A DNA stretch of 64,000 bases from an uncultured Clostridia bacterium (lineage in GTDB: Bacteria; Bacillota; Clostridia; TANB77; CAG-508). The stretch covers positions 32,695-96,694 of the forward strand of contig CALXAA010000002.1 of assembly GCA_944386165.1 (NCBI GenBank). Reading direction: 5' to 3'. Each line of letters starts with the position of its first letter. The first letter of the stretch is position 1. This document shows positions 8,635 through 64,000 of this stretch, one piece after another. The notes beneath the pieces are model-generated. The model made no database searches and had not been told where the DNA came from. It saw only the letters and a list, made by a program, of their open reading frames with translations. The translations under genes and the position numbers were made by a program.

Positions 8635-11106
8635 TTATTCTACATCATGTCTTGCAAGAATTTTTGCAGGTGTTTTTCTTAAAACTTTATAAACAGGTAT
8701 TAAACCAACCCAAAAATTAAAAATATAGATTATAAAAATGCTTAATAATATTACATTAAAATTTATAACAAACATATTTTTAAAATCATTAAACTTAGAT
8801 ACAGTGCTTAGAATATAAAACATAAATATAACTCCTGTTAGACTTGCAACTGTTGTAATTGCAAATATTTCTCCAGTAAACATTCTATAAATATCCATTC
8901 TTTTTACACCAATTGCTCTCAGAGTTCCAATTTCTTTTACTCTAGTTAAAAATGATGCTCTCATCATCAAGTAAATTTCAATCAGTGAAATACAGAAAAT
9001 AATTACTGAGAAAATTATAGTATTATTAACATTTTCTTTTTGGCTATCAATATATTGCTGTTTATCATATTCATATGTATCAATAATATTTAAGTTCTGT
9101 TCATTTTTTAGTTTATTATAAACATCTTCTTTATTTTTTGGATATATTACAAAATTATCTTTATTTTCTAAAACACCATATTTTACTGTATTATTATTTA
9201 CAAGATAATTTTGTTTATTAGTTTTACTTTCATAATATCCAACAACTTTTAGATTTATATTGTTAATTTTAGTATCTATTGTTTTATTTAATTTAATTGT
9301 ATCTTTATTAGCAATATTTACAATAACTTCATAATCATTAGTAGGCATTCTACCTTTTTCTATTGTAATATCATCTAAATATAAATTATAATCTTCAACT
9401 TTTTCAGAAATATTATCATCCTGTGATATAAATCCAAAATTAAAACTTGAATTATTACTTGTTGTATTGTTTAATATATTTATAAAATTATCTTTATTCA
9501 TATATATTGAAGGACTTGCTTTATCTGTAATTCCAACAATAACAAAATCTTCTAAATTGTCAATCGATAATTTTTTTCCTATTACATCTTGAATTTTTTG
9601 TATACCAACTTCATTTATAACATTATTTTCTACACCAGAACTTGAACCACTATTACCTGTAATGCTAGAAATTCTGTCAATTACTAGTCTATCTATAACA
9701 ATCTCATGTTGATTACTTGGCATATTTCCATAAATCAAATCATTTGCATTAATTTCATCAATACTTGTTAGAGAACCAGATATATTTAGAAAAAATCTTG
9801 ATGTTTGAAAATATTCTTCAAATTTCATTTTAAAACTTACTAAACTGTCTCCTGGCAAAATGTAATCAATACCTTCTAGTGTTTCCAATTGTAAATATTG
9901 GTCTATATTAATTTTGCCACTATTTACTTGTAAATAATTTTTATTTTTTGTTATAAAATCTTTGTCTTCAATGTTAAATGTTGCAAATATACTACTAATT
10001 GAATATACTATAAACATTGCAGAAGCAAAATAACCAACAAGTATGGCTTTTTTTAGTATTGAATAATTTCCTATTTTTTTAAATCCATTTATAACAGATT
10101 TTAAAATACCATAAATTGAACTATATCTTGGTTTTCTTTTATTTTCTTCTAAATCAAATTTAAATTCTTTATATATTTTTTTGTCTATTTTTTTATAATT
10201 GTCATTTACAAATTCAATTATAGAATTTTCATCTACTACTTCTACTTTTTTTCCTTCTGCTTCTACATATATATTCCCATTCATAATAGCAAGTTTTGCA
10301 TTTATAGCATCACCATTGTTATAGTATACATCAAGTTTTACATTATCTTTTTGAAAATTTTCATAATTTTCAAAATCTTTTAAATAAATTTTATTATCTA
10401 ATCTATAGTCTAAATATTCTTTATCAGTGTTTTCATAATCTTTTACAATTTGTCCATCTTTTATTTCTATAATCCTTGAAGCATAAAATTTGGCAAGTTC
10501 TTCTTCATGTGTAACTAATATTACTAGTTTTTCTTTTGAAATTGCTTTTAAAATATTCATTATTTCTATTGAGTTTCTACTATCTAGATTTCCAGTTGGC
10601 TCATCTGCTAAAAGAATGTTTGGATTTTTTACAATTGCTCTAGCAATAGCTATTCTTTGTTTTTCTCCACCTGATAGCATTTTGGCTGGTCTATTTCTAT
10701 GTCTGTACATGTTCACACTATTAAGCACATAGTCCACTTTTTTCTTTATTTCATTTTTGTTTTTAATACCTATCATTCTTAAAGATAAAGCTATATTATT
10801 ATACACAGTCATATTATCAATTAATTTGTAATCTTGAAATATATATCCAATATTTGCATTTCTTATTTTGTCTTTTGTATAAGTACTTCTTTTAGTTATC
10901 TTTTTACCATTTATAAATATTTTTCCTTTATTTACATTATCTAAACCACCAATTGTATTTAGAAGAGTTGTCTTGCCACTTCCAGATGGTCCAAGAATTG
11001 CAATTAATCCTGTTTGTCCTAGTTCAAGCGAAATATTATTTATTATATGTATTTGATTAGGTTTTCTTCTATTAAAATATTTGTTCAATCTTTCAATCTT
11101 GACCAT
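8635..11106 (-). CDS. MacB-like ABC transporter, ATPase fused to FtsX-type permease
   Basis: Walker A GPSGSGKTTLLN, ABC signature LSGGEKQRIAIARA, Walker B ILLADEPTGNLD; C-terminal 4-TM FtsX-like domain with a large extracytoplasmic loop. Confidence 0.75.
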   Translation of the reverse strand: MVKIERLNKYFNRRKPNQIHIINNISLELGQTGLIAILGPSGSGKTTLLNTIGGLDNVNKGKIFINGKKITKRSTYTKDKIRNANIGYIFQDYKLIDNMTVYNNIALSLRMIGIKNKNEIKKKVDYVLNSVNMYRHRNRPAKMLSGGEKQRIAIARAIVKNPNILLADEPTGNLDSRNSIEIMNILKAISKEKLVILVTHEEELAKFYASRIIEIKDGQIVKDYENTDKEYLDYRLDNKIYLKDFENYENFQKDNVKLDVYYNNGDAINAKLAIMNGNIYVEAEGKKVEVVDENSIIEFVNDNYKKIDKKIYKEFKFDLEENKRKPRYSSIYGILKSVINGFKKIGNYSILKKAILVGYFASAMFIVYSISSIFATFNIEDKDFITKNKNYLQVNSGKINIDQYLQLETLEGIDYILPGDSLVSFKMKFEEYFQTSRFFLNISGSLTSIDEINANDLIYGNMPSNQHEIVIDRLVIDRISSITGNSGSSSGVENNVINEVGIQKIQDVIGKKLSIDNLEDFVIVGITDKASPSIYMNKDNFINILNNTTSNNSSFNFGFISQDDNISEKVEDYNLYLDDITIEKGRMPTNDYEVIVNIANKDTIKLNKTIDTKINNINLKVVGYYESKTNKQNYLVNNNTVKYGVLENKDNFVIYPKNKEDVYNKLKNEQNLNIIDTYEYDKQQYIDSQKENVNNTIIFSVIIFCISLIEIYLMMRASFLTRVKEIGTLRAIGVKRMDIYRMFTGEIFAITTVASLTGVIFMFYILSTVSKFNDFKNMFVINFNVILLSIFIIYIFNFWVGLIPVYKVLRKTPAKILARHDVE

Positions 11107-31112: not shown

Positions 31113-32252
31113 TTATTCTTTTATTTCTTTAACAACTTCTTGAATTAAATTTTTTTGTTCAACATTTAGTTCAATATTATTTTGAAATTTATAAAATTCA
31201 TTAAATAATTCTACTTCACTTTTGCTTTTTACTTTTTGTAAGTTTTCTGTTTTAAATTCTATATTTGACAATATTTTAGAATTTTGAACTTCTAATTTTA
31301 ATACATTTGGATATATTCTTCTTAATTGTCCTATTGCATCATATACTGGTTCTTCATTTGTTATAATTGCTCTAATATAATCTTTTGCATTTTCTTCTTC
31401 ATAATTTTCTATTAATTTTTCAATTGGACCTTTAATTTCTCTCATATCTCTTAATGGTTTTAATTCTACTAATTTTATGTCTATATTTCCTTTTTCTTTA
31501 AAATCTATAATTGGCATTGTTTTTTTATGATTTACTTCTGAAAATGAATATTTAAGCATTGTTCCTGCATATCTTGCTGTATCTCTACCTATTCTTTGTG
31601 GTCTATGTACATGTCCTATTGCTACATAATCAAATTTGTTGTAATTAGATATATCTACATTATCTGTTCCTCCTAATGTTAATACTTCTGATTCTGTTCT
31701 TTCTACTTCTTCACCTATAGCTGTTACAAATTGGTGTGTTAAAATAATGTTTCTTTGTGATTCATCAATATCTTCTTTTTCAATTATTTTTTTGATTGTT
31801 TCATCATAACTTAAACTTTCATCATCAAAATATTTTTTTACCTCTATAGGTTTTATAAAAGGTAACATATAAATATTAAGTTTTCCATATTCATCTTGTA
31901 ATTCTACTTTTTTTATTTTTCCTTCATATTTGCTTGAAATAAATAAACCCTCATTTTCAAATATTTTATTTCCAAATCCAAGTCTTTCTTTTGAATCATG
32001 ATTACCTGCAATTATAAATACTTTCTTTTTTAATTCTTTAATAAGTATATTTAAAAATCGGTCTAATAAATCTATTGCATCAGCTTGTGGTATACTCCTA
32101 TCATATACATCTCCAGCAATTAAAATTGCATCTATATTTTCTGCTTTTATTTTTTCTATTATTTTGTTTAACATATATTCTTGATCTTCTAGTAATGATT
32201 GTTCAAAAATTATTTTTCCAATATGTAAATCTGCTAAATGTAATATTTTCAT
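31113..32252 (-). CDS. sbcD: Nuclease SbcD (Mre11-like), start taken at MKILHLADLHIGK
   Basis: Calcineurin-like phosphoesterase motifs (HLADLH, GDVYD, GNHD, GHVH); RBS AAAGGA 8 nt upstream of 32252. Confidence 0.85.
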   Translation of the reverse strand: MKILHLADLHIGKIIFEQSLLEDQEYMLNKIIEKIKAENIDAILIAGDVYDRSIPQADAIDLLDRFLNILIKELKKKVFIIAGNHDSKERLGFGNKIFENEGLFISSKYEGKIKKVELQDEYGKLNIYMLPFIKPIEVKKYFDDESLSYDETIKKIIEKEDIDESQRNIILTHQFVTAIGEEVERTESEVLTLGGTDNVDISNYNKFDYVAIGHVHRPQRIGRDTARYAGTMLKYSFSEVNHKKTMPIIDFKEKGNIDIKLVELKPLRDMREIKGPIEKLIENYEEENAKDYIRAIITNEEPVYDAIGQLRRIYPNVLKLEVQNSKILSNIEFKTENLQKVKSKSEVELFNEFYKFQNNIELNVEQKNLIQEVVKEIKE

Positions 32253-52611: not shown

Positions 52612-54687
52612 TTATTGTAGTCCTGAAAATGCTCCAGACATACTTGTTAGTCCAATAAATACTAGTGGTACAATTAAGTATCCAACAAATAGACAAATTA
52701 ATGGGGCAAAACCTACCACTTTTCCTATTATACCTTTTTTAGATATAAATTGTTCATTTGTAGCTTTTCTCTTTTCTCTATGATAATCTCTATCTGCATC
52801 TAGCTCATCAAATGCCTCTCTAATTGGAATTTTTTCTACTGCTGCTTGCAAGCTTTCTACAATTCTTATCATAGCTTGATTTGATACTGAATTCTTTAGT
52901 TCTTCTAATGCCTCCCATGCTCCTGCTTCATAGTTATTTACACATTTTGAAATTGGTTCTTTAAATATATTAGAATATCTTTCTAGCCATTCAAGAATCA
53001 TTTCTACATTAACTCTTTCAATTTTCATAAGCATTAAAATAATTGTTTGGAATTGCATTACTTCGTTTTCCATTTCCATTTGTCTCATTCGTTTTTGGAA
53101 CATCATTAACCATACTGGTGCCATATATCCAACTATTGCAAATCCAATTGCTAATAATTCTTCAAACCATTTCATGCTTTCAGAATTAACTACATCTAAT
53201 TTGCCTAAAATTCTCTCAGCATCAGTTTCTAAATTTTCATCTGTTTCTGTATAATATTTAGATTTTATCATTTCATCTTGAATATCTTCAACTGTAATAT
53301 CAAGATCACCTTTTAATTTATTTATAAAATAATTATCTTGCTCAGTTAATTCCATAGCATTTTGCAAGTCTTTATCAGACATCGTACCAAGAACCTGAGT
53401 TCTTGTAGTTGGTTCAGTATAAACATAATTAATTGCTAGTTTATGTAATTGTGCAGTAAATACAATTGTTGCAATAAAAGTAACTATAAATAGTGCTATT
53501 CTATTTACATATACCCATTCCATTTTTGATTTTGATGCAGAATCTTTTAGCAATTTCTGTATTTTTTTATAATCTTTTGAACCTGGCTTTGGAACAAATA
53601 AATTTATAAATTTTTTCAAAATTGGATTTTTATATACTTTTTCTTGCCAAGGGTGTTCATTGTTTGTTGCTGTTTGAACTCCTCCATTATCTTTCAATTT
53701 TCTAGTTAAGATATAAGAAACAACTGTTAATATAACAATTAAAATTTGAGCAATCATTCCTAATTTCCCATTGTAAAAGCTACTAGTAAATGAGAAGTTC
53801 GACATACACCAACTTTTTAATGGCTCTAACAATAAAACTGGCACAATTGAAATTACAGATAAACTCTGAAAAACATAATTTAATTTATCTCTTTTTAAAA
53901 TTTCAATTTGCATTTCTTGTGTAATGTTATCTATGTTTTTTAAATATAAAGAAGAATTATCCTTATCTTTTCTATCTCCAAATTCTTTTGTCATATATGA
54001 TATACCAGCAAACTCTTTTAAATAACTGTTTGGAGCCACATCATAATATTTTTCAAGTTCTGTTTCAGGATCATCAGAAATTAAAATTTCATAAATTTTT
54101 TCACCTTGTTTAGAAACATTTTTTTCATCATCTAGTGAGACTTGGTAAATTGCTTCTTCAACCATATTAAATTCGTGATATGCATGTCTAATTTCTGCAA
54201 AAAAATCTACTTGTTCTTTTAACAAGTTATTATCAATTTTATCTACCATTCCATCAACCATTGTATCTATAATGAAAAGTTCAAAAATTAATAAAATACT
54301 CATTAATAAGAAATTTTCTCTTGTTAAAGAAATTGTAATTAGTATGACTGGTATTAAAATTATAATAGCCTTAAATAATATCTTTGCCGAATCTCTTCTT
54401 GTGGCATATTCATCATCTATGTTTATAATCTCTAATCTTCTACGAAGTTTATATAAATATCTTTTTAAGAAAGGTATTTTATTAAAGATAATATATGCTT
54501 TTTGATAAAAAACCTCAATTGAGAAACTGCTACTTCTAGTTCCTTGTTGTAACTTTTTTATTTGTCGGTATTCTGATTTTGCAAGTTTCTTATTCAAAAT
54601 TACATATGCTATAATAATTAACACAAATAATCCTATTGCGCCAAATAATATATATTTTAGCATATCTGTATTCATTAAATCAAACAC
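52612..54687 (-). CDS. Fused TadB/TadC-like (GspF/T2SSF-type) platform membrane protein
   Basis: 691 aa with two blocks of paired TM helices separated by cytoplasmic helical domains; immediately downstream of the CpaF-like ATPase. Confidence 0.5.
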   Translation of the reverse strand: MFDLMNTDMLKYILFGAIGLFVLIIIAYVILNKKLAKSEYRQIKKLQQGTRSSSFSIEVFYQKAYIIFNKIPFLKRYLYKLRRRLEIINIDDEYATRRDSAKILFKAIIILIPVILITISLTRENFLLMSILLIFELFIIDTMVDGMVDKIDNNLLKEQVDFFAEIRHAYHEFNMVEEAIYQVSLDDEKNVSKQGEKIYEILISDDPETELEKYYDVAPNSYLKEFAGISYMTKEFGDRKDKDNSSLYLKNIDNITQEMQIEILKRDKLNYVFQSLSVISIVPVLLLEPLKSWCMSNFSFTSSFYNGKLGMIAQILIVILTVVSYILTRKLKDNGGVQTATNNEHPWQEKVYKNPILKKFINLFVPKPGSKDYKKIQKLLKDSASKSKMEWVYVNRIALFIVTFIATIVFTAQLHKLAINYVYTEPTTRTQVLGTMSDKDLQNAMELTEQDNYFINKLKGDLDITVEDIQDEMIKSKYYTETDENLETDAERILGKLDVVNSESMKWFEELLAIGFAIVGYMAPVWLMMFQKRMRQMEMENEVMQFQTIILMLMKIERVNVEMILEWLERYSNIFKEPISKCVNNYEAGAWEALEELKNSVSNQAMIRIVESLQAAVEKIPIREAFDELDADRDYHREKRKATNEQFISKKGIIGKVVGFAPLICLFVGYLIVPLVFIGLTSMSGAFSGLQ

Positions 54688-54714
54688 CTCTCCTTCTATA
54701 GTATATTTAACATA

Positions 54715-56622
54715 TTATTTATTTTTGCTTTTCACAGACTTTCCCCATGTATTTTCAATAAATTTATCAAATTCAATTGCATCTGCCTCATCCATATTTG
54801 CTCTCATCTCACTAATATTTTGGTCAGAAATTTTATTTGTTAATTGGTATTCTCCATCTATATATTCTAATACATTTTGATAAACATAAAGTTTTTGTTC
54901 TGTAACTTTTGAAAAATATGTTGTTGCATTATCAAAAAATTTAACCCATTTATCATCCATATTTTTTTCAGTTCTATAATCGTAATTGTATTCTGAAGTA
55001 TCTTTTACTGGTATACATTCTGTTACTCTTTCTATATATCTTCTACCTCTAAAGTCTTTTTTTAAGTGAATATCAAAATTTAAAACTTGTACAACTTGTT
55101 CTTCTGCAGTTTTTTCATTTGTAAATACTCCTGCTCTTAACATTGAGTTTCTTAAAGCAGTTACTAAATCTGGGAATGTTTTAGCATGGTGAGTAAATAA
55201 AGTAAATTTAGAAGCAACTTGTGCAGATTGTATCATCCAAGATGCTACTGGGTCTGTTGCAACCTCACCAATGATATTAACAGAACCATCTGTTTTTTTC
55301 TGTACGTCCAAACACTCTTGACCAGAAATTGTATCTGTTTCACGCATTGATAAAATATTTCTAGTTGGATATACTTTTCTTAAGTGTAACTCAAATGCAG
55401 TTTCTGTAATACGTAAGTTCATTGTTTCATATATATTTTCAATTAATCCCATAAGTAATGTTGTTTTACCACAACCCTGCTCACCAGTAATTGAAACAAT
55501 TCTTGCACCTTTTACAAGATATTTTAATAAATCAATTGCTTTTTCCTTTCCTTGCATATCTCCTGTCCATTGTTCAACTGTTGCAAGTTTTACGTCAAAT
55601 TTTCTTACGAAAAATGCCCATGTTTCAGACATACTTGGTCTTACTACAACAACACGTGATCCGTCTTTCATTTCATTGATTTTATATCCATTTGTATCAG
55701 ACAATTGTCCTGGGTTATTATACTTATAAATATTTTGGCATACTCTTTTTAATTCTGATTCTGATCCAAATGATAAAAATGCTAAACGTATTGATTTACC
55801 TTGGAAAAATATCCAAATACTATCACATGCACGTGGAACTTTATGTTCAGCTACTTGTTCTATATAATCACCAGCTCCAGATTGTGCTACTTGATTTAAG
55901 AAACTTTCTGGTAAACCAGATACACCACCAGATACACCATCTATATTCATGTCTCTTATTTCATCTATAGAACTATATCCTTTATAATGTTGATAAATTC
56001 GTTGAACAACTACTTCTAATTTGTCTCTAAAATTAAGTATAAATCTTTCTTTTTCATAAATTTCATCAATTTCTTCAGCTGTAATAACATAAGATGGTTT
56101 TGTTTCACCTTGTAAATATTTTAAAGAAGCTAGATTATATCTTTTAATAAGTTCTGTTAAAGCTTCATATCCAAATTCTTTTTTATACATATATAGTAAA
56201 ATGTCAAATTTATCTTGTGATGATAATAAAGATGGCACATCAAAAGGGATTGCTCTAGATATGTTAGTTTCATCAACACCATATTCTTTTTCTAATATAT
56301 CAGATATTAATTCTTTTACATATTTTTTATCATTAATATCTCCATATGTACAACCTTTCAAAGCTTTTTTTAATGCATATTTTTTATTTTTTCTTCTCTT
56401 TAATTCCTCTTCAGAAAGTCCAATATCATATAAGTTTACTTTTGTAATTTCATCTAATCTCTTTTTTACATACTCTCTCATTACATCAATAGTGTATGTT
56501 TTATCATCTTTTTCAACTTCAGTTTCTACTTCAGCATTTTTGTTTTTATTTATATAATATAATAATAGTATAATAGCTATTATAAAAACTAAAATTATTA
56601 AAAGTATATTAAATAATGTCAT
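54715..56622 (-). CDS. CpaF/TadA/VirB11-family secretion ATPase with unusual N-terminal TM anchor and ~330-aa extension
   Basis: Walker A GEQGCGKTTLL; Walker B-like IIGEVATD; His-box FTHHAKT; N-terminus MTLFNILLIILVFIIAIILLLYY is hydrophobic. Confidence 0.6.
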   Translation of the reverse strand: MTLFNILLIILVFIIAIILLLYYINKNKNAEVETEVEKDDKTYTIDVMREYVKKRLDEITKVNLYDIGLSEEELKRRKNKKYALKKALKGCTYGDINDKKYVKELISDILEKEYGVDETNISRAIPFDVPSLLSSQDKFDILLYMYKKEFGYEALTELIKRYNLASLKYLQGETKPSYVITAEEIDEIYEKERFILNFRDKLEVVVQRIYQHYKGYSSIDEIRDMNIDGVSGGVSGLPESFLNQVAQSGAGDYIEQVAEHKVPRACDSIWIFFQGKSIRLAFLSFGSESELKRVCQNIYKYNNPGQLSDTNGYKINEMKDGSRVVVVRPSMSETWAFFVRKFDVKLATVEQWTGDMQGKEKAIDLLKYLVKGARIVSITGEQGCGKTTLLMGLIENIYETMNLRITETAFELHLRKVYPTRNILSMRETDTISGQECLDVQKKTDGSVNIIGEVATDPVASWMIQSAQVASKFTLFTHHAKTFPDLVTALRNSMLRAGVFTNEKTAEEQVVQVLNFDIHLKKDFRGRRYIERVTECIPVKDTSEYNYDYRTEKNMDDKWVKFFDNATTYFSKVTEQKLYVYQNVLEYIDGEYQLTNKISDQNISEMRANMDEADAIEFDKFIENTWGKSVKSKNK

Positions 56623-56626
56623 CTTA

Positions 56627-57457
56627 TCACCTCATTTGCAATTCTTGTAATCTATTTATTATGAACTCTGCTACTTTTTGCACTTCTTTCATAAAAAAGT
56701 AATTTTTATCTGTATTATCTTTTATATTACTTAATTTTAAGAATAAATCCATAACATTAGCTTCTTCTGAAGCTTCAAAATATAAAGTATTATAAGGAAT
56801 TACTAATAATTCTCCCTTTTCTTCTAAATATTTCCCAAGATTTTTTTTATTATATTTTGAGTCATTATCATATTTAGCTATTAGTACAGAATTTTTTAAA
56901 GAATTTAGATTTTTATCTTTGTTTTTTAGGTTTATATAGTTCTCAATATCGGAAAGTTTTTGAGTTGTAACATATAAATTCAAGTCTGAAATTTCTAGAA
57001 TCTGTTTTTTAATTTCCATATTTAAACGTCCATCTAAATCTACTAAAACAATGTCATAATATTGATTTGCTACTTGTAATACTTTACAATAGTTTTGATA
57101 TATCTCATTATAAATTTCTACATTTTTACCTGCAACATTATCAGATAAAGCACTAAAACCAAATAATACTTCAAATCTTCCTTTTAAAATCGCATGAGAA
57201 TAATCTGTTATAACACTTGGTTCAATTTTATTACTTGTAATTAATCTCATAAGTCCTTCTATACCATTTTCTACTTCTAAGCTGCCTGGTTCACTTATAA
57301 GTTTGCTTTTATTTTTATTTTCTTTCCAAAAGCATCTTTTAACAGTTTCATCATTAACACTTGTAGAGACTAATAATATTTTTAAATTACGTTCAATGGC
57401 CATTTTAGTTGCAATAGCAACTGTCGAAAGTGTTTGTCCGATTTGTTTTTTTATCAC
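56627..57457 (-). CDS. Degenerate ParA/MinD/CpaE-like protein (pseudo-ATPase; Walker A lost)
   Basis: TVAIATKMAIERNLKILLVS in place of GGKGGVGKTT; retains YYDIVLVDLDG Walker B-like block. Confidence 0.45.
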   Translation of the reverse strand: MIKKQIGQTLSTVAIATKMAIERNLKILLVSTSVNDETVKRCFWKENKNKSKLISEPGSLEVENGIEGLMRLITSNKIEPSVITDYSHAILKGRFEVLFGFSALSDNVAGKNVEIYNEIYQNYCKVLQVANQYYDIVLVDLDGRLNMEIKKQILEISDLNLYVTTQKLSDIENYINLKNKDKNLNSLKNSVLIAKYDNDSKYNKKNLGKYLEEKGELLVIPYNTLYFEASEEANVMDLFLKLSNIKDNTDKNYFFMKEVQKVAEFIINRLQELQMR

Positions 57458-57494
57458 TACTCCATAAAGTTACAATTGACATCCTTTTTCTCCT

Positions 57495-58181
57495 TTATAA
57501 ATCTTTAATTATATTTTTTATATTTTTTTGACCTAATGATGGCTCTATTTCATTTACTAAATAAGTAACATTTTCTTTAAAAATGTTGCTTAAATTTTTG
57601 AATTTTATATTTTCTAATCTTTGATTTTCTATTAATGCTGCTTGATCTCCATTTTCTAATGGAAAATATAATTTTGTTTCTTCCCATTCAACCTTTAGGC
57701 CTAATGCTAAATAATCAAAATATTGTTCTTCTTCTTTAAACATCTGTTTTGAATAAAATAATTTTGACATTTTTATTGGATATTCTAAAAAGCGTAAAAG
57801 TTCAATACCTTTTTTTAATGAATATGCATCAAATGATGTAACGTAATATAATAAATCAAAACTAGATAATTCAAAATTTTCAAAACCATAATAGTCATCT
57901 ACATCAACGAAAATATAATCATAATCTAAACTATCATTTTCTTCAATTCCACAATATTCTTTTACTTGATTTATATCTCCAAATCCAACAGCTATATCTA
58001 TACCTTGGTAATCTGTTAGGTATGATATAGTTGGCATTATTGTTGGAATTACATATTTGGTTTTTTGAATTGATGTTGCATCAATAAATAATACTCTTGC
58101 TTCTGCTTTAGTTAAAATTTTAGAAATACAAAGTATTAAATCTGTTTTATCAAAAACCCCCACAAATCCAATTTTTTTCAT
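57495..58181 (-). CDS. Second degenerate ParA/CpaE-like protein
   Basis: MKKIGFVGVFDKTDL in place of a deviant Walker A; YDYIFVDVDD block. Confidence 0.4.
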   Translation of the reverse strand: MKKIGFVGVFDKTDLILCISKILTKAEARVLFIDATSIQKTKYVIPTIMPTISYLTDYQGIDIAVGFGDINQVKEYCGIEENDSLDYDYIFVDVDDYYGFENFELSSFDLLYYVTSFDAYSLKKGIELLRFLEYPIKMSKLFYSKQMFKEEEQYFDYLALGLKVEWEETKLYFPLENGDQAALIENQRLENIKFKNLSNIFKENVTYLVNEIEPSLGQKNIKNIIKDL

Positions 58182-58258
58182 ATATCTATCCTTTCAAGTC
58201 TATTATCTTTAATATTATCACATAGTAAGGGCATATGCACTATGCCCCTACAATTTAT

Positions 58259-59371
58259 TTACTCTACCACATCTAGAGATTCAATATAGTTTCTTCTAGC
58301 AGATTGTGCATTTGTTGTGCTTTCATCCATTCCAGTTTGAACATTTGCATTATATGATGGATCATTATTTATTGAAGATTGTAAATATTCATTTCTTGCA
58401 GTGGTTGCTGGAGCTTGATATCTTCTTCTTAATTCATTTTTTGCTTCTTCAACTACATTAGGATTTGAAATATTTCCATTTGCATCTACTCCTAATAGTG
58501 TTGTAACTGCAGAGTTTGGTCTATATGTTGGTATTGAAGCATCTTGCATTCCTGGTTCTTTGTATTTAGAAGCATATAATTTAGCTCCTTGTATACCATA
58601 AGCTTCTACTATAGCACTAGATAATGAAAGAATTTCATCCTCTCTTAAATTTAATCTAATTGTATCAGCTACATATGTCCCATCACTATTTAAAGGTATA
58701 TCTACTTGTTTCTTTGATACTACTATAAAGTTTTGTCCATCTGGAGTCATTAATCTTATATCAACATAATCTCCAGACATTAAGTCTACTGGTAAAACTA
58801 TCATATTGTAGTCTTCTACCCTTACATCATCAGTTACTGGTGCATCTGATTGTACGACTAAATTAGGTGTAATAACAGTATTTGCATCCATATCTAATTT
58901 AGCTAATACTGGTACATTATTTAATTCAATAGTTTCTGTGTTTCCATTTCTATCTTGTGTATAATAATTTCCTGTTGAAGAATCTTGGTAAACTCTTACT
59001 GTTTGTCCTTCTGCATCTGTGTAATATAGTCCTTCTGCATCTGTATTTAACATAGTTCCACTTGTTGTTTGTAGAAACCATCCACTTATTACCTCAGCTA
59101 CAGATGTAGCATTTGCTGGTATTGTACTTCTATCAACAGATTTTAATGTAAACATATCTTCTGTTAGTACTTGTCCTGATTTTACATCTTGGTTTAGTAC
59201 ATAAACTCTAGCAAGTGCAGCTTGTGCCGCATCTTGATCGTCTTTCATATTTTTTAAAAGTAATAGTAACAATACTATTATAATTCCTGTTATTAATAAT
59301 GTAATTAATACACCTGTTAAAAATGATGTTCTTGCCTTTTTTTGCATTGGATTCATTGCCATTTTTATCAC
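58259..59371 (-). CDS. CpaB/RcpC-like Flp pilus assembly protein (SAF domain)
   Basis: N-terminal TM LTGVLITLLITGIIIVLLLLLL, then SAF-like VYVLNQDVKSGQVLTEDMFTLKSV; first gene of the operon. Confidence 0.55.
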   Translation of the reverse strand: MIKMAMNPMQKKARTSFLTGVLITLLITGIIIVLLLLLLKNMKDDQDAAQAALARVYVLNQDVKSGQVLTEDMFTLKSVDRSTIPANATSVAEVISGWFLQTTSGTMLNTDAEGLYYTDAEGQTVRVYQDSSTGNYYTQDRNGNTETIELNNVPVLAKLDMDANTVITPNLVVQSDAPVTDDVRVEDYNMIVLPVDLMSGDYVDIRLMTPDGQNFIVVSKKQVDIPLNSDGTYVADTIRLNLREDEILSLSSAIVEAYGIQGAKLYASKYKEPGMQDASIPTYRPNSAVTTLLGVDANGNISNPNVVEEAKNELRRRYQAPATTARNEYLQSSINNDPSYNANVQTGMDESTTNAQSARRNYIESLDVVE

Positions 59372-60661: not shown

Positions 60662-60862
60662 ATGGCAAATTCAAACAGCAACAAAAAATTAGTACCAGAA
60701 GCTATGAGCGCTTTAGATAAATTCAAATATGAAGTTGCTTCAGAAATAGGTGTAACATTAAAAGATGGTTACAATGGTGATATATCAGCTAAAGATGCTG
60801 GTAAAATAGGTGGAAACATGGTTAGAAAAATGATCCAACAAGTTGAAAACAATATGAAATAG
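60662..60862 (+). CDS. Alpha/beta-type small acid-soluble spore protein
   Basis: 66 aa; KFKYEVASEIGV ... GKIGGNMVRKMIQ matches both conserved SASP boxes. Confidence 0.85.
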   Translation: MANSNSNKKLVPEAMSALDKFKYEVASEIGVTLKDGYNGDISAKDAGKIGGNMVRKMIQQVENNMK

Positions 60863-60879
60863 TTTTAATTGTTTAATCT

Positions 60880-60920
60880 GGGGTCAGTTCCAAAATTGTT
60901 TGGGGTCGGTTCCAAAATTG
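60880..60920. repeat. Two tandem copies of 19-nt unit GGGGTCRGTTCCAAAATTG separated by TTT
   Basis: ggggtcagttccaaaattg ttt ggggtcggttccaaaattg read directly after the SASP stop. Confidence 0.7.
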
Positions 60921-61065: not shown

Positions 61066-63096
61066 TTACTTAATATATTTAGGTAATAGTAGTCCACTTA
61101 TTTCTCCCAATTCTCTTCCGTTTTCTTTTATTTTTGAACTTTTAAATCCTTCTACTCCGTTTTCATCTTTTCCATCTATAATTCTTGGTAGAACCATTAA
61201 TATATATGGATTTCCTAATTTGTCAGATTTATTTAACATAAACCAATACATACTTGCTTCTTTTCCATTTTTTGTTCCTACTGGATATTGAACTAATGCA
61301 TCTTTATAATTATTTTTTATATAATTAAAGTCATATATTCTTAATGCTTCTTTCATTGGAATTGTATCCATATTAAACATTTTTAGAGAAATATTGCTTA
61401 GCTTCATTTCTGAAGAGTTGAAGAAATTATCATAATCTATTATTGAATATTGTATTTTGCCATTGTTTTCTGTAATATTTCTTATATAAACATTTTGTAC
61501 ATCTATTTTACAACTTCCAAAACCTAAAGGTTTAGCTTTTCCTATTTTATGACACAAGTCTTTATTATCATATTTTAAATTAATTACAGCTATTAATTCA
61601 TTCAAATTTTCTTCATTTATATTATTAAAATAAATTTTAAAATTAAATTTTGTGTTTACTTTTACCGGTGTTACTTCACAATTTCTTTCTGTTTTTTCAT
61701 TTGTAACACTATTTTGTATATCATCATGATGCCAATACATTTTTCTTCCTCTTATTGATATATCTCCTTCTTTTATATCAACTTTTCCATTTTGTGTTAT
61801 GCGTACATCATAATTAAAGTCAAAATTTTGTGGAAGGTTTTGAAATTGATTGTTTGGAGCATATAATGCATAAAATGCAGCATTTGCTATATGTGGACTT
61901 GCAAGTTCTTTAATTATCATCTTTTTGTCATATGGATTTTCTTTTGCCTCATAAATAGCATCAGATACACGAATTTTTGATGATATGGCATCATTTTCAG
62001 ATACAAAACCAAACATATTACATGCATTACATATATTATTTTTATCTATACATGGCATAAATTCTCCTACTAATTCATGTAATTTCCTGTGATATGCTTC
62101 TTTACCTATTGCTGCTAATGACAAATATCTTCTATTCTGAGTATCTGGTTTACTATACCATACTGGAAGTACTTGTAATTTTGCTATATCATATCCTGCA
62201 TACCAAACTTTATTTTTTCCTCTTATTTTTTGATTAAAAGCTTTATCATTATACATATCAAAAATTTCTTTTAAATTTTTAATACTTTCTTCTATATTAG
62301 ATATTTGTACTTCTACATTTTGTTTAACAAAAATACTATCATGTATATTATTATTTCCATTTTTATCTACTTCTTTTTTTCCACCCAATTCTCCAACAAA
62401 CAAAATGCCTTCTGTATTTCCGCTTCCAATAGATATAACATATGGTGATAAATGTGGATTATTTGATGGCTTAAATGTAAATTTAACCCTATCTCCTGTT
62501 TTATAAATTTTATCTCCAACTTTTAATCCGTTATTTTCATCAACAAAATAAGTTGCACAATTTTGAACACTTGCATCTTTAGGTTTGCCTTTACCTCTTC
62601 TACATGTATTTACAGCATACCTTTTTGCCTCATATAAATGCCACTTTCCATTATTGTCTTTTTCCAATATTCCAGGCATTTTTATATCTTTTGATCTTGA
62701 AATAAATGATATGTCATCATTTAATGTTGACATACATGAATTTGTAAATACTTCATAATCAGATCTTAGCATTCCTCTAATTTCACTTCCAGGTATTACA
62801 GGTACAGTAAAATTATTTTCTGTACTTTTTTCCCCATAATTAAAGAACTTATATTTTCTAAACTTCTTATCTCCACCCAAATTTTCTTCTTCAACATCAT
62901 TTGTACTTGGAACTATAATTGGTGTTTTTGCTATTAATTCACATTCAATAAATCCTGTTAATTTTCCTCTTCTTTCTGATTCTGGCAATCTTTCACAATT
63001 TTCTGGAAGAGTTATAAAATTATAAGGATTAATATATTTTACATTTTTATCAATACTTACATTATTACTTTTTCTTTGATTATTATAATTTTGCAT
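61066..63096 (-). CDS. Large RAMP-superfamily protein (two RRM/RAMP-like halves; Cas7/Cmr1/Csm5-like)
   Basis: 676 aa; RAMP motif VPVIPGSEIRGMLR (aa ~95); Cys cluster CIDKNNICNACNMFGF; C-terminal glycine-rich loop GKAKPLGFGSCKI; first glycine-rich segment SIGSGNTEGILFVGELGG; RBS AAGGAGGA; start abuts stop of upstream gene (TAAATG). Confidence 0.55.
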   Translation of the reverse strand: MQNYNNQRKSNNVSIDKNVKYINPYNFITLPENCERLPESERRGKLTGFIECELIAKTPIIVPSTNDVEEENLGGDKKFRKYKFFNYGEKSTENNFTVPVIPGSEIRGMLRSDYEVFTNSCMSTLNDDISFISRSKDIKMPGILEKDNNGKWHLYEAKRYAVNTCRRGKGKPKDASVQNCATYFVDENNGLKVGDKIYKTGDRVKFTFKPSNNPHLSPYVISIGSGNTEGILFVGELGGKKEVDKNGNNNIHDSIFVKQNVEVQISNIEESIKNLKEIFDMYNDKAFNQKIRGKNKVWYAGYDIAKLQVLPVWYSKPDTQNRRYLSLAAIGKEAYHRKLHELVGEFMPCIDKNNICNACNMFGFVSENDAISSKIRVSDAIYEAKENPYDKKMIIKELASPHIANAAFYALYAPNNQFQNLPQNFDFNYDVRITQNGKVDIKEGDISIRGRKMYWHHDDIQNSVTNEKTERNCEVTPVKVNTKFNFKIYFNNINEENLNELIAVINLKYDNKDLCHKIGKAKPLGFGSCKIDVQNVYIRNITENNGKIQYSIIDYDNFFNSSEMKLSNISLKMFNMDTIPMKEALRIYDFNYIKNNYKDALVQYPVGTKNGKEASMYWFMLNKSDKLGNPYILMVLPRIIDGKDENGVEGFKSSKIKENGRELGEISGLLLPKYIK

Positions 63097-63483
63097 TTAT
63101 ATCTCCTCCTTATCAGTAAATCCAACTAAACGAGAATCTTCAATTATTACTTGATTATTTTTATCTATATTTAAATAATTTCTCACAACTAATCTTTTTA
63201 AATTATCACTTCTTAAAAACATATATTCATCAAAAAAATCTATACCTTGAGTATCATCAATTCTCTTGCTTAAAATTTTTCCATCTTTAACTATTAATCT
63301 TATTTCTAAATCTTTATTAAATAATCTAATTTGATTACACAAAGAAAATTCAACATCTTGATCAAATTTCATTTCATTGTTTTCATATTTTCCTACACAT
63401 ACTTTATTGTAAAAATAAGCTATTACATTAGCATTTTCAACATTTTCGGCTTTTATAATGTTTAAAACCATATCTTTATTCAT
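63097..63483 (-). CDS. Small protein between the two RAMP genes (start taken at MNKDMVLN; 8-nt overlap with upstream gene)
   Basis: 128 aa; no recognisable motif. Confidence 0.4.
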   Translation of the reverse strand: MNKDMVLNIIKAENVENANVIAYFYNKVCVGKYENNEMKFDQDVEFSLCNQIRLFNKDLEIRLIVKDGKILSKRIDDTQGIDFFDEYMFLRSDNLKRLVVRNYLNIDKNNQVIIEDSRLVGFTDKEEI

Positions 63484-64000
63484 CTGCCACACCTCCAAGA
63501 ATTTTACTAATAGCATTATCTAAATCCAATTTTTCTCCATTTAATGTTACATTTTCTACTTTAAATAATCCTCTACCAATTGATGTTTGTCCACCAAGTG
63601 CAACTAGTCCATTATCAATATCTTTTATAACTAATGCAATTAATCCAATTATTCTACTATTATCATTATCTTGTTTTATACTTTTCTTTACTTTTATACC
63701 AAGACAAGTATAACCATTAAAATATGCAGATTCAGAAAATAATGCTCTATCAGCTGCTCCTCCTGAAAATCTATCAATCTTATTTCTAGTTAAATCTATT
63801 TTATTTGCATTGTTAATAGTAGATTCTTCAATAATTATATTGGAAGAAAATGCTTCTTGTTCTTTACTTTTTTCTCTTCCAAACCAATCTGTTAAGATAA
63901 CACCAGAATTATGTATTAAATCATTTTTCATATATTCTAAAATTTGTCTTTTAATTAACCCATTCCAACTAGTTCCAGGAATAACAGGTTTTCCATTAGA
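63476..64000 (-). CDS. Cas7-like RAMP protein (Csm3/Cmr4/Cmr6-like), 5' end beyond window
   Basis: Frame open to the window edge: ..SNGKPVIPGTSWNGLIKRQIL (PGSSWKG-type RAMP motif), then DRFSGGAADRALF and C-terminal G-rich loop LVALGGQTSIGRGLFKV. Confidence 0.55.
   Translation of the reverse strand, partial: SNGKPVIPGTSWNGLIKRQILEYMKNDLIHNSGVILTDWFGREKSKEQEAFSSNIIIEESTINNANKIDLTRNKIDRFSGGAADRALFSESAYFNGYTCLGIKVKKSIKQDNDNSRIIGLIALVIKDIDNGLVALGGQTSIGRGLFKVENVTLNGEKLDLDNAISKILGGVADE

Follow-up and report, generated by a model that had tools for sequence, protein, structure and literature searches.

The type III-Dv CRISPR-Cas system of Synechocystis sp. PCC 6803 is encoded by a five-gene operon, behind which lie cas6-2a, the genes for adaptation and an array of 56 spacers (PDB 8S9T/8S9U; Schwartz et al., 2024, PMC11026444). 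Its chains include Cas10, a Cas7-Cas5-Cas11 fusion, Cas7-2x and a Cas7-insertion protein. Csx19 is a small core subunit, placed between Cas5 and Cas10 in both III-D1 and III-Dv complexes (PMC11026444). Type III-E Cas7-11 (gRAMP) joins four Cas7 domains and Cas11 in a single polypeptide of 1,300-1,800 aa, has neither Cas10 nor Cas5, and is partnered by the protease Csx29 (PDB 7WAH, 8D97). Type III-D2, a reduced type III-D relative from Gammaproteobacteria bacterium HyVt-522, carries Cas7x3 and Cas7-5, lacks Csx19, is accompanied by CorA and VapBC-like ancillaries, and makes SAM-AMP (Mitsuda et al., 2026, PMC13294483; PDB 9WXH). Type III-D loci of a Csx19/24 cluster have also been catalogued, by gene clustering only, in Lachnospiraceae (example ERE_12150; Shah et al., 2018, PMC6546367), which shows that the csx19-containing III-D kind is already on record in gut Firmicutes.

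The locus described here lies at the edge of a 64-kb stretch of DNA from an uncultured Clostridia bacterium (the window). Its three visible genes are very probably the last three of a type III-Dv interference operon, the rest of which sits past the window edge. A preliminary description had seen RAMP genes with neither cas10 nor cas6 nor an array in view; this appearance is due to the window edge and does not point to a new class 1 effector.

Genes at the Window Edge

The minus strand of positions 61066-64000 carries three ORFs (Table 1). As first described, they are tightly coupled: the stop of csx19 abuts the start of the 676-aa gene, and the csx19 start at 63483 overlaps the cas7-2x stop by 8 nt. 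An alternative upstream ATG at 63516 would extend csx19 to 139 aa (63097-63516). The motifs from which RAMP membership had been proposed are all present in the translations (IPGTSWNG, LGGQTSIGRGLF, IPGSEIRG, KPLGFGSCKI, and NPYNFITLP), as is the C-x6-C-x2-C cluster, CIDKNNICNAC. Profile searches bear the proposal out. The 676-aa protein scores 244 bits against TIGR03986 (cutoff 161) and matches PADLOC Cas7_IIId at 6e-142, the middle protein scores 58.7 bits against TIGR03984/Csx19 (cutoff 35) and matches PADLOC Csx19 at 1e-13, and the truncated third ORF matches Pfam RAMPs at 2.7e-10. With both TIGR scores above their cutoffs and the Pfam match in addition, the resemblance, as judged from these profiles, is not one of chance. 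Comparison of Csx19 with PDB sequences gives no meaningful match, so that its assignment rests on the HMM profiles.

Table 1. Features of the operon and its downstream border. Positions are those of the window unless contig L001 is named.
Feature	Position	Strand	Evidence or remark
cas7-insertion, TIGR03986 family RAMP, 676 aa	61066..63096	-	TIGR03986, PADLOC Cas7_IIId, fold match 8s9t_E
csx19, 128 aa	63097..63483	-	TIGR03984, PADLOC Csx19; start as picked by gene callers
cas7-2x, 3' part, residues ~245-419 of 419	63476..64000	-	cut by window edge
cas7-2x, full gene, 419 aa	L001 8362-9621		
cas10, 511 aa	L001 4707-6242		2.8 kb past window edge
Hairpin, terminator-like, 10-bp G+C-rich stem, 5-nt loop	60993..61017	-	49 nt past cas7-insertion stop
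22-nt tandem motif	60879-60920		beside operon end
Alpha/beta-type SASP gene	60662-60862	+	Pfam SASP; downstream of operon

The 676-aa protein had been taken to hold two RAMP-like halves. Alignment to Cas7-11 and the fold search show that these are the N- and C-terminal parts of a single Cas7 domain (residues ~20-136 and ~441-566), split by a large insertion (residues ~137-440) and followed by a C-terminal extension. The Cas7.4 domain of Cas7-11 aligns with both parts, its own insertion falling between them. A four-cysteine cluster (C121, C349, C356, and C359) is conserved in 90% or more of 47 homologues. The fold is shown by an AlphaFold model (pLDDT 89, pTM 0.87). Its best PDB match, over the full length, is 8s9t_E (E 1e-26, TM 0.60/0.60), which in the III-Dv complex of Synechocystis is the Cas7-insertion chain. 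The complete Cas7-2x, recovered from the adjoining contig described below, matches PADLOC Cas7_IIId at 1e-114 and shows two RAMP stretches by Pfam, and its best PDB sequence match is 8s9t_D, named “Cas7-2x” (2.6e-17).

The hairpin behind cas7-insertion occurs at the same position in loci L003 and L089, in the latter with both stem arms changed. A simple scan for terminators missed it; the operon probably ends here. The sporulation gene reported downstream is indeed a SASP gene. Between them lies a 22-nt tandem motif, the core of which also flanks cas6 in L086/L087. Its matches in IMG/VR (40 single, 0 paired) are close to chance by our rough estimate. The motif was rejected as a CRISPR array, its period being too short.

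The Operon Beyond the Window

Over 4001 nt, the public contig L001 and the window agree at 100% identity, and the genes upstream can therefore be assigned to the same genome or strain. The remaining operon genes sit there just beyond window position 64000, giving the order cas10 (511 aa), cas7-cas5-cas11 (706 aa), cas7-2x (419 aa), csx19 (128 aa), and cas7-insertion (676 aa), all on the minus strand. They are preceded by genes for a Csm6-like CARF-HEPN protein, a MYG1-like DHH-type enzyme and a STAND/TPR NTPase. Of the earlier suggestion that an operon ended here, with its other genes and an array beyond 64000, the gene part is thus confirmed (cas10, a cas5-group domain, a CARF gene, and cas6 are all there), whereas the array is missing from the stretch covered past the edge (10 kb in L001, ~18 kb in ten conspecific strains).

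Cas10 matches Pfam Cas10-Cmr2_palm2 (6e-11) and PADLOC Cas10d (2e-117), and its sole PDB sequence match is the Cas10 chain 8s9t_C (7e-21). It has no HD motif, and the palm-1 motif at residue 8 opens the protein. The motifs YDVRGIQ, HIDGN and AGDD, the last in place of the canonical GGDD, are invariant in 14 diverse homologues. In the 706-aa fusion, Pfam RAMPs (residues 7-194) and Csx10 (residues 445-548) cover the Cas7 and Cas5 parts, respectively, and the ~150 C-terminal residues are a putative Cas11. The fusion matches PADLOC Cas5_IIId (709 positions) end to end at 1e-172 and aligns over residues 5-545 to 8s9t_A (2e-9), with its D26 opposite the catalytic D26 of that chain. The Csm6-like protein retains an R-x4-H motif. 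In conspecific strains a divergently transcribed cas6 lies upstream of the operon; all ten carry an intact copy (237 aa). The gene occurs also in L003, and its product scores 118 bits against TIGR01877. Ordinary polysaccharide-synthesis genes start directly after it in the ten strains. All these family assignments are above curated cutoffs or have very low E-values, and PDB sequence searches lead to the four corresponding 8S9T chains (Cas10, Cas7-Cas5-Cas11, Cas7-2x, and the TIGR03986 chain). The gene identities and their order are established.

The window alone, showing RAMP genes only, would also fit a system apart from Cas10-based type III interference, be it a novel module of RAMPs alone, type III-E (gRAMP) or something like type IV, and parts of the 676-aa protein do match III-E gRAMP (131 bits) and, weakly, Csf2. 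The Cas10 gene in the same operon already refutes this reading. Moreover, the gRAMP match falls far short of the profile's cutoff of 700 and is confined to the Cas7.4 domain that the two share, the Csf2 and Csf3 profiles give weak sub-threshold matches (16-26 bits against cutoffs of 130-140), there is no Csx29, TPR-CHAT, Csf1 or DinG gene, and Csx19 marks III-D1 and III-Dv. We give it virtually no credence. Since every subunit matches an existing type III-D profile over its whole length and the operon follows the characterized III-Dv architecture, a new kind of system is unsupported, and of the array-less module of unknown function, or repurposed effector, that had been envisaged there remains the lack of an adjacent array or adaptation module in the copy of this species.

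Proposed Mechanism

By analogy with the solved structure from Synechocystis, the subunits, each in a single copy, would come together on one crRNA of ~37 nt processed by Cas6. The 3' end of this crRNA would be held by the insertion domain of the 676-aa protein and exposed as a seed. Cleavage of target RNA would take place at the Cas7 sites, and the bound target would also induce the palm domain of Cas10 to produce a nucleotide second messenger. This would most likely be cyclic oligoadenylate (cOA), which in turn would activate the neighboring Csm6 HEPN RNase. D26 of the fusion, HIDGN and AGDD of Cas10, and R-x4-H of the Csm6-like protein are all retained.

SAM-AMP-type messengers are known from type III-D2 and from a Bacteroides fragilis III-B system, and Cas10 might make these instead of cOA, with the MYG1-like enzyme as an off switch analogous to NrN. 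The closely related III-D2 complex makes SAM-AMP2 besides SAM-AMP, and phosphodiesterases of the DHH family (NrN) are encoded in SAM-AMP loci (PMC13294483); the unusual, invariant AGDD of this Cas10 family and the translational coupling of the DHH-type gene to the signaling gene are consistent with such a scheme. However, the ancillary protein is a CARF-HEPN, Csm6-like one, the standard cOA receptor, and the locus has no CorA gene. At the motif level, the Asp in palm-1 (D12-V-R-G-I-Q) appears to resemble D253 of the cOA-making L. lactis Csm1 and to differ from E8, the Glu by which SAM is contacted in III-D2. We consider SAM-AMP signaling here improbable, and cOA the likelier messenger.

Array and Adaptation Genes

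The statement that the 64-kb window holds no repeat-spacer array is upheld by TRF, a k-mer chain scan, a repeat search, and Rfam with its CRISPR-DR families; at the gathering threshold, Rfam finds zero families, CRISPR-DR models included, over the window, L001 and L003. The array that had been expected past the edge is absent from the next 10 kb in L001 and from the next ~18 kb in ten conspecific strains. Adaptation genes (cas1/cas2) are likewise absent from the window, the 10 kb beyond it, and the ten strains. A complete canonical type III locus with an array upstream had been named as the outcome that would make the finding ordinary: the effector locus was found, the array was not. Repeat remnants were sought in the window, L001 and L003 with six relatives' repeat variants and the solo repeat of L089, at up to 9 mismatches. 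Just two 9-mismatch matches at chance level resulted, at window position 31166 (L011 variant) and at L003 position 21420. Nothing meaningful was found in L083 and L086, and four variants at up to 8 mismatches gave no remnant in the conspecific strains.

The same operon with the same gene order is found in 65 GTDB species-level loci, mostly of gut Clostridia and Lachnospiraceae. An array lies within the fetched flanks of 36 of the 65, and of 27 among the 42 well-flanked loci, the flanks of the other 15 being without one. The same Cas6 family accompanies 37/65 loci and RT-Cas1/Cas2 23/65; the CRISPR repeats of these loci are 30 nt long and of the family GTTTCAAAyCyCTAAyGrGTAAkGTAAAAC. Related loci thus range from complete (array, cas6, and RT-cas1/cas2) to array-less.

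These absences could mean that the module is an orphan, which lost its array and adaptation genes and now holds a guide-less effector, either decaying or kept for a crRNA-free function. The island lacks both array and cas1/cas2 in the strain of the window and in the ten conspecific ones, the syntenic sister lineage L089-L091 retains one solo repeat, and cas7-cas5-cas11 is broken by a nonsense mutation or frameshift in two conspecific assemblies, which together make loss of the guide supply and decay conceivable. The single repeat-like sequence of L006, the degenerate array of L081 and the array-less loci among the well-flanked relatives point the same way. On the other hand, faulty metagenome assembly could account for both broken copies, and arrays of type III systems are often located elsewhere. 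An intact cas6 in every conspecific strain also speaks against an orphan, as we know of no role for cas6 without a repeat to cut. The effector genes of L001 and L003 differ with a dN/dS of 0.12-0.32 at a dS of 0.56-0.68, like flanking housekeeping genes; purifying selection has therefore acted on them over a dS of ~0.6. An orphan effector is accordingly the less likely case, and crRNAs are probably supplied from an array elsewhere in the genome, because the effector genes are still under such selection. A pseudogene remnant in the window's strain was rejected, since all ORFs are intact and dN/dS is in the range given. Save for the missing nearby array and spacer-acquisition genes, the locus is an ordinary one.

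Conserved Neighbors

The gene for a MYG1/UPF0160 DHH-type phosphoesterase is a recurrent neighbor of the operon and is translationally coupled to csm6. It and the STAND/TPR gene are two conserved neighbors that are not catalogued as cas accessories, and the literature searched contains no link between MYG1/UPF0160/COG4286 and type III CRISPR. A more speculative account, to which we assign a low probability, would make the MYG1-like enzyme a new type III accessory, acting as a messenger off-switch or as a crRNA 3'-trimming exonuclease, in an island whose guides are made elsewhere or come from no classical array. Should this neighbor prove functional, type III signaling or crRNA maturation would gain a further class of enzyme.

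Comparison With Known Systems

Synechocystis III-Dv is the closest described relative. The order of the five genes is identical, each protein has the corresponding chain as its best or only PDB sequence match (except Csx19, placed by HMM only), Cas10 is HD-less in both, a Csm6-type accessory gene lies upstream in both, and the 676-aa protein has the fold of chain E (TM 0.60). Sequence identity is ~18-30%. The proteins are somewhat shorter here, with 676 aa against 795 and 511 aa against 575, and AGDD replaces the GGDD of Synechocystis. By contrast with the arrangement there, neither a cas6 gene nor adaptation genes nor an array follow the operon; cas6 is found upstream on the opposite strand, array and cas1/cas2 are absent nearby, and the STAND/TPR and MYG1-like genes are added.

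Type III-E shares parts with this locus: the Cas7.4 domain, insertion domain and C-terminal region of Cas7-11 have their homologue in the 676-aa protein, and the second domain of Cas7-2x resembles an internal Cas7 domain. However, the subunits are separate here, and Cas10 and Cas5 are present, which places the locus outside III-E. Like type III-D2, it has fused Cas7 domains, one insertion domain and a small Cas10 devoid of HD and, by analogy, presumably signals through a second messenger; Cas7-2x, a separate Cas7-insertion, Csx19 and the CARF-HEPN protein set it apart from III-D2. The presence of Cas10 separates it from type IV (Csf2, Csf3, and Csf1, with no Cas10). The Lachnospiraceae type III-D loci come from the same bacterial group and carry the same csx19-containing cassette; a MYG1-like or STAND/TPR neighbor is not mentioned for them (Shah et al., 2018, PMC6546367). 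The locus adds a Firmicutes example of the III-Dv architecture, which links type III-D1 complexes, built of several subunits, to the single-protein Cas7-11.

Gene Content and Classification

At the window edge lies an ordinary operon of type III-Dv, which that edge cuts. Its part inside the window consists of three tightly packed minus-strand ORFs (61066-64000), which agree with the preliminary description, and all the motifs quoted there are found in their translations. The RAMP character of two of them also holds: the 676-aa product matches TIGR03986 ("type III CRISPR-associated RAMP protein" in NCBIfam) and the truncated third ORF matches Pfam RAMPs (2.7e-10). The gene downstream, on the opposite strand, encodes an alpha/beta-type SASP, as had been stated. 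Exact-protein look-up of the 676-aa product retrieved L001, a 122-kb ENA scaffold (ERZ28614365:scaffold_202) in which position 9097 corresponds to window 64000, and which represents the window's genome or strain because the two are 100% identical over 4001 nt. Beyond 64000, where the proposal was to look, L001 encodes cas10, a Cas7-Cas5 fusion and a Csm6-like CARF-HEPN gene.

Features of the type III-Dv island, its neighborhood and related loci
Feature	Window	Other loci	Strand	Details
TIGR03986 protein (Cas7-insertion)	61066-63096	L001 10001-12031	-	676 aa; TIGR03986, 244 bits (cutoff 161)
Csx19	63097-63483 (128 aa) or 63097-63516 (139 aa)	L001 9614-10000	-	TIGR03984, 58.7 bits (cutoff 35); PADLOC Csx19
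Double Cas7 (Cas7-2x)	63476-64000, runs off window end	L001 8362-9621	-	419 aa; PADLOC Cas7_IIId 1e-114
Cas7-Cas5(Csx10) fusion		L001 6242-8362		706 aa; PADLOC Cas5_IIId 1e-172, end-to-end match
Cas10		L001 4707-6242		511 aa; PADLOC Cas10d 2e-117
CARF-HEPN, Csm6-like		L001 2891-4687		598 aa; PADLOC CARF_HEPN 7e-20; motif RVSAAH
MYG1/UPF0160 protein	about 70203-71159, were the window extended	L001 1938-2894		Pfam 4.6e-73
STAND/TPR protein		L001 1-1904 (start beyond L001); L003 4568-7204; L083 4336-7026; L086 1869-4577; L132 7340-9967		Pfam TPR families; 875-879 aa in conspecific strains
Tad/Flp-like cluster	52612-59371		-	ATPase-like, 635 and 691 aa; SAF-domain, 370 aa; ParA-like, 228 and 276 aa
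Paired 22-nt repeats	60879-60920			TGGGGTCAGTTCCAAAATTGTT / TGGGGTCGGTTCCAAAATTGAC
Solo repeats		L089 472-501; L090, L091 481-510		CTTTCAAATTTCTAATGAGTAAGATAAAAC
Repeat-like sequence		L006 17680-17709
Frameshifted cas7-cas5-cas11		L134 14738-14862		65-nt tandem duplication
Interrupted cas7-cas5-cas11		L137 14305-16425		nonsense codon at position 458

The PDB sequence matches of each large subunit point to the corresponding chain of 8S9T, the type III-Dv complex of Synechocystis sp. PCC 6803. The sole match of Cas10 is 8s9t_C (7e-21), and that of the 706-aa fusion is 8s9t_A ("Cas7-Cas5-Cas11"), whose catalytic D26 aligns with D26 of the fusion, while the 419-aa protein matches best to 8s9t_D ("Cas7-2x"). 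The 676-aa protein matches the TIGR03986 chains 8s9t_E and 9wxh_D, and also the Cas7.4 domain of Cas7-11 on either side of the insertion in that domain. Its structure was predicted, as had been suggested, by AlphaFold2 from a 47-sequence alignment (mean pLDDT 89, pTM 0.87), and the model has the Cas7-insertion fold, with 8s9t_E as top PDB fold match (E 1e-26, TM 0.60 by either length) and Cas7-11 structures next. The "two RAMP-like halves" ascribed to this protein are therefore a single Cas7 domain, interrupted by an insertion domain. Its C-x6-C-x2-C cluster forms with C121 a four-cysteine set, kept in at least 90% of the 47 homologues. The gene order of L001 is exactly that published for Synechocystis, cas10, cas7-cas5-cas11, cas7-2x, csx19 and cas7-insertion with a Csm6/Csx1 gene upstream (PMC11026444). 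Types III-E, III-D2 and IV were also tested as identities, and each fails on defining features.

Proposed Mechanism and Signaling

By analogy with the solved complex, Cas6 would cut the pre-crRNA, and one crRNA would assemble one copy of each subunit. Csx19 is expected to sit between Cas5 and Cas10 and assembly would depend on it. The 676-aa subunit's insertion domain would present the crRNA's 3' end as the seed, and target RNA would be cleaved at the Cas7 active sites. Cas10 has no HD domain, and its palm motifs YDVRGIQ, HIDGN and AGDD are invariant across 14 diverse homologues. Its output is most likely cyclic-oligoadenylate signaling to the Csm6-type RNase, since a CARF-HEPN protein is encoded next door. 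SAM-AMP signaling, which was recently demonstrated in III-D2, a related type (PMC13294483), is a minor alternative; against it speak the CARF type of the effector gene here, the absence of CorA and the Asp that Cas10 carries at the palm-1 position.

The Missing Array

TRF, a k-mer chain scan, find_repeats and Rfam all agree with the earlier observation that the 64-kb window contains no array. Searching with MYG1 found an identical protein on many contigs. Ten conspecific loci were fetched (96.5-98.5% nucleotide identity to the window). In all ten the island is the same: an LCP (LytR) gene and polysaccharide-synthesis genes flank it upstream, the SASP gene flanks it downstream, and it contains cas6 on the opposite strand, followed by a STAND/TPR gene, MYG1, csm6 and the five effector genes. 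The 237-aa cas6 product is intact throughout, and none of the ten islands contains an array, cas1 or cas2. Of the two readings first offered, that of a type III operon continuing past 64000 stands for Cas10, the Cas5-type fusion, the CARF gene and cas6, but not for the array, and that of an array-less RAMP module stands for the lack of array and adaptation genes, but not for a function unknown.

Related loci came from a scan in which a Cas10 alignment was run against GTDB species genomes; of the 78 loci that it gave, mostly from gut Clostridia and Lachnospiraceae, 65 share the order of Cas10 and Cas7-insertion. Among these 65, an array lies in the fetched flanks of 36 (27 of the 42 that are well flanked), 37 carry the island's Cas6 family, and 23 an RT-Cas1 fusion with Cas2. 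The repeats are typically 30 nt long (e.g., GTTTCAAATCCCTAACGGGTAAGGTAAAAC). With up to nine mismatches allowed, neither the window nor L001 nor L003, a syntenic species representative, contains a match to them, save two isolated, chance-like matches at nine mismatches. The sister lineages L081, L089-L091 and L006 show array erosion: the array of L081 is degenerate, a solo repeat is all that remains in L089-L091, loci in synteny with the window, and one repeat-like sequence adjoins the otherwise array-less type III-Dv locus L006. These solo repeats seem to be what is left of eroded arrays.

Despite the missing array, the effector genes are kept under constraint, with dN/dS of 0.12-0.32 at dS of 0.56-0.68 between L001 and L003, the same as in the flanking HAD and SAF genes. 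The fusion gene cas7-cas5-cas11 is broken in two of the ten conspecific assemblies (L134 and L137), which may reflect either real decay in some members of the population or errors made in assembling the metagenomes. It is concluded that the island is a type III-Dv interference module without array or adaptation genes, for which crRNAs are most likely supplied by an array elsewhere in the genome; that the module is guide-less in the window's species seems improbable.

Synonymous divergence from L003 is sharply mosaic across the island in L001 and locus L132. The LCP, cas6, STAND/TPR and MYG1 genes are nearly identical (dS 0.04-0.12), csm6 reaches 0.20, and cas10 through cas7-insertion, together with the flanking HAD and SAF genes, 0.56-0.69. 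This jump between the MYG1 and cas10 sides implies that a recent recombination event had its breakpoint near csm6/cas10.

Neighboring Genes and Repeats

The MYG1/UPF0160 gene (PF03690, DHH-type, motif KYDHHQ) shares 4 nt with the csm6-like gene in L001, and the family was also noted at L003, L004, L005, L010, L011, L028, L034, L044, L052, L057, L073, and L078. Of the 65 related loci, 13, distant ones included, have a homologue no more than 10 kb away, nearly always upstream and co-directional. The literature searched contained no link between MYG1/UPF0160 and CRISPR. As a candidate accessory, the protein might either switch off the messenger or trim crRNA 3' ends. Between cas6 and MYG1, the window's clade conserves a gene for a P-loop NTPase of the STAND type (875-902 aa) whose C-terminal part holds TPR repeats; it has no PADLOC match, and could be a separate defense gene or an accessory.

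The stretch from the SASP gene to the operon end contains a pair of 22-nt direct repeats that abut each other. Their core, GGrACyGACCCCA, doubled at a 22-nt period, also occurs beside the cas6 3' end in two related loci (L086 and L087); the chance expectation for such a pair in the window is 0.01. An IMG/VR scan gave single matches only, and no pairs. Further into the window, a run of genes resembles, by eye and from one faint Pfam SAF match, a Tad/Flp-type pilus assembly cluster.

Comparison with Known Type III-Dv Systems

The operon belongs to a kind already defined and structurally solved, and NCBIfam and PADLOC profiles recognize every subunit; III-D cassettes with Csx19 had been catalogued in Lachnospiraceae by 2018 (PMC6546367). 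Compared with the Synechocystis prototype, sequence identity is low and the Cas10 motif is AGDD instead of GGDD. The cas6 gene is relocated upstream on the other strand, and the island, unlike that of Synechocystis, adjoins neither an array nor adaptation genes. Its two conserved neighbors are extra relative to the prototype.
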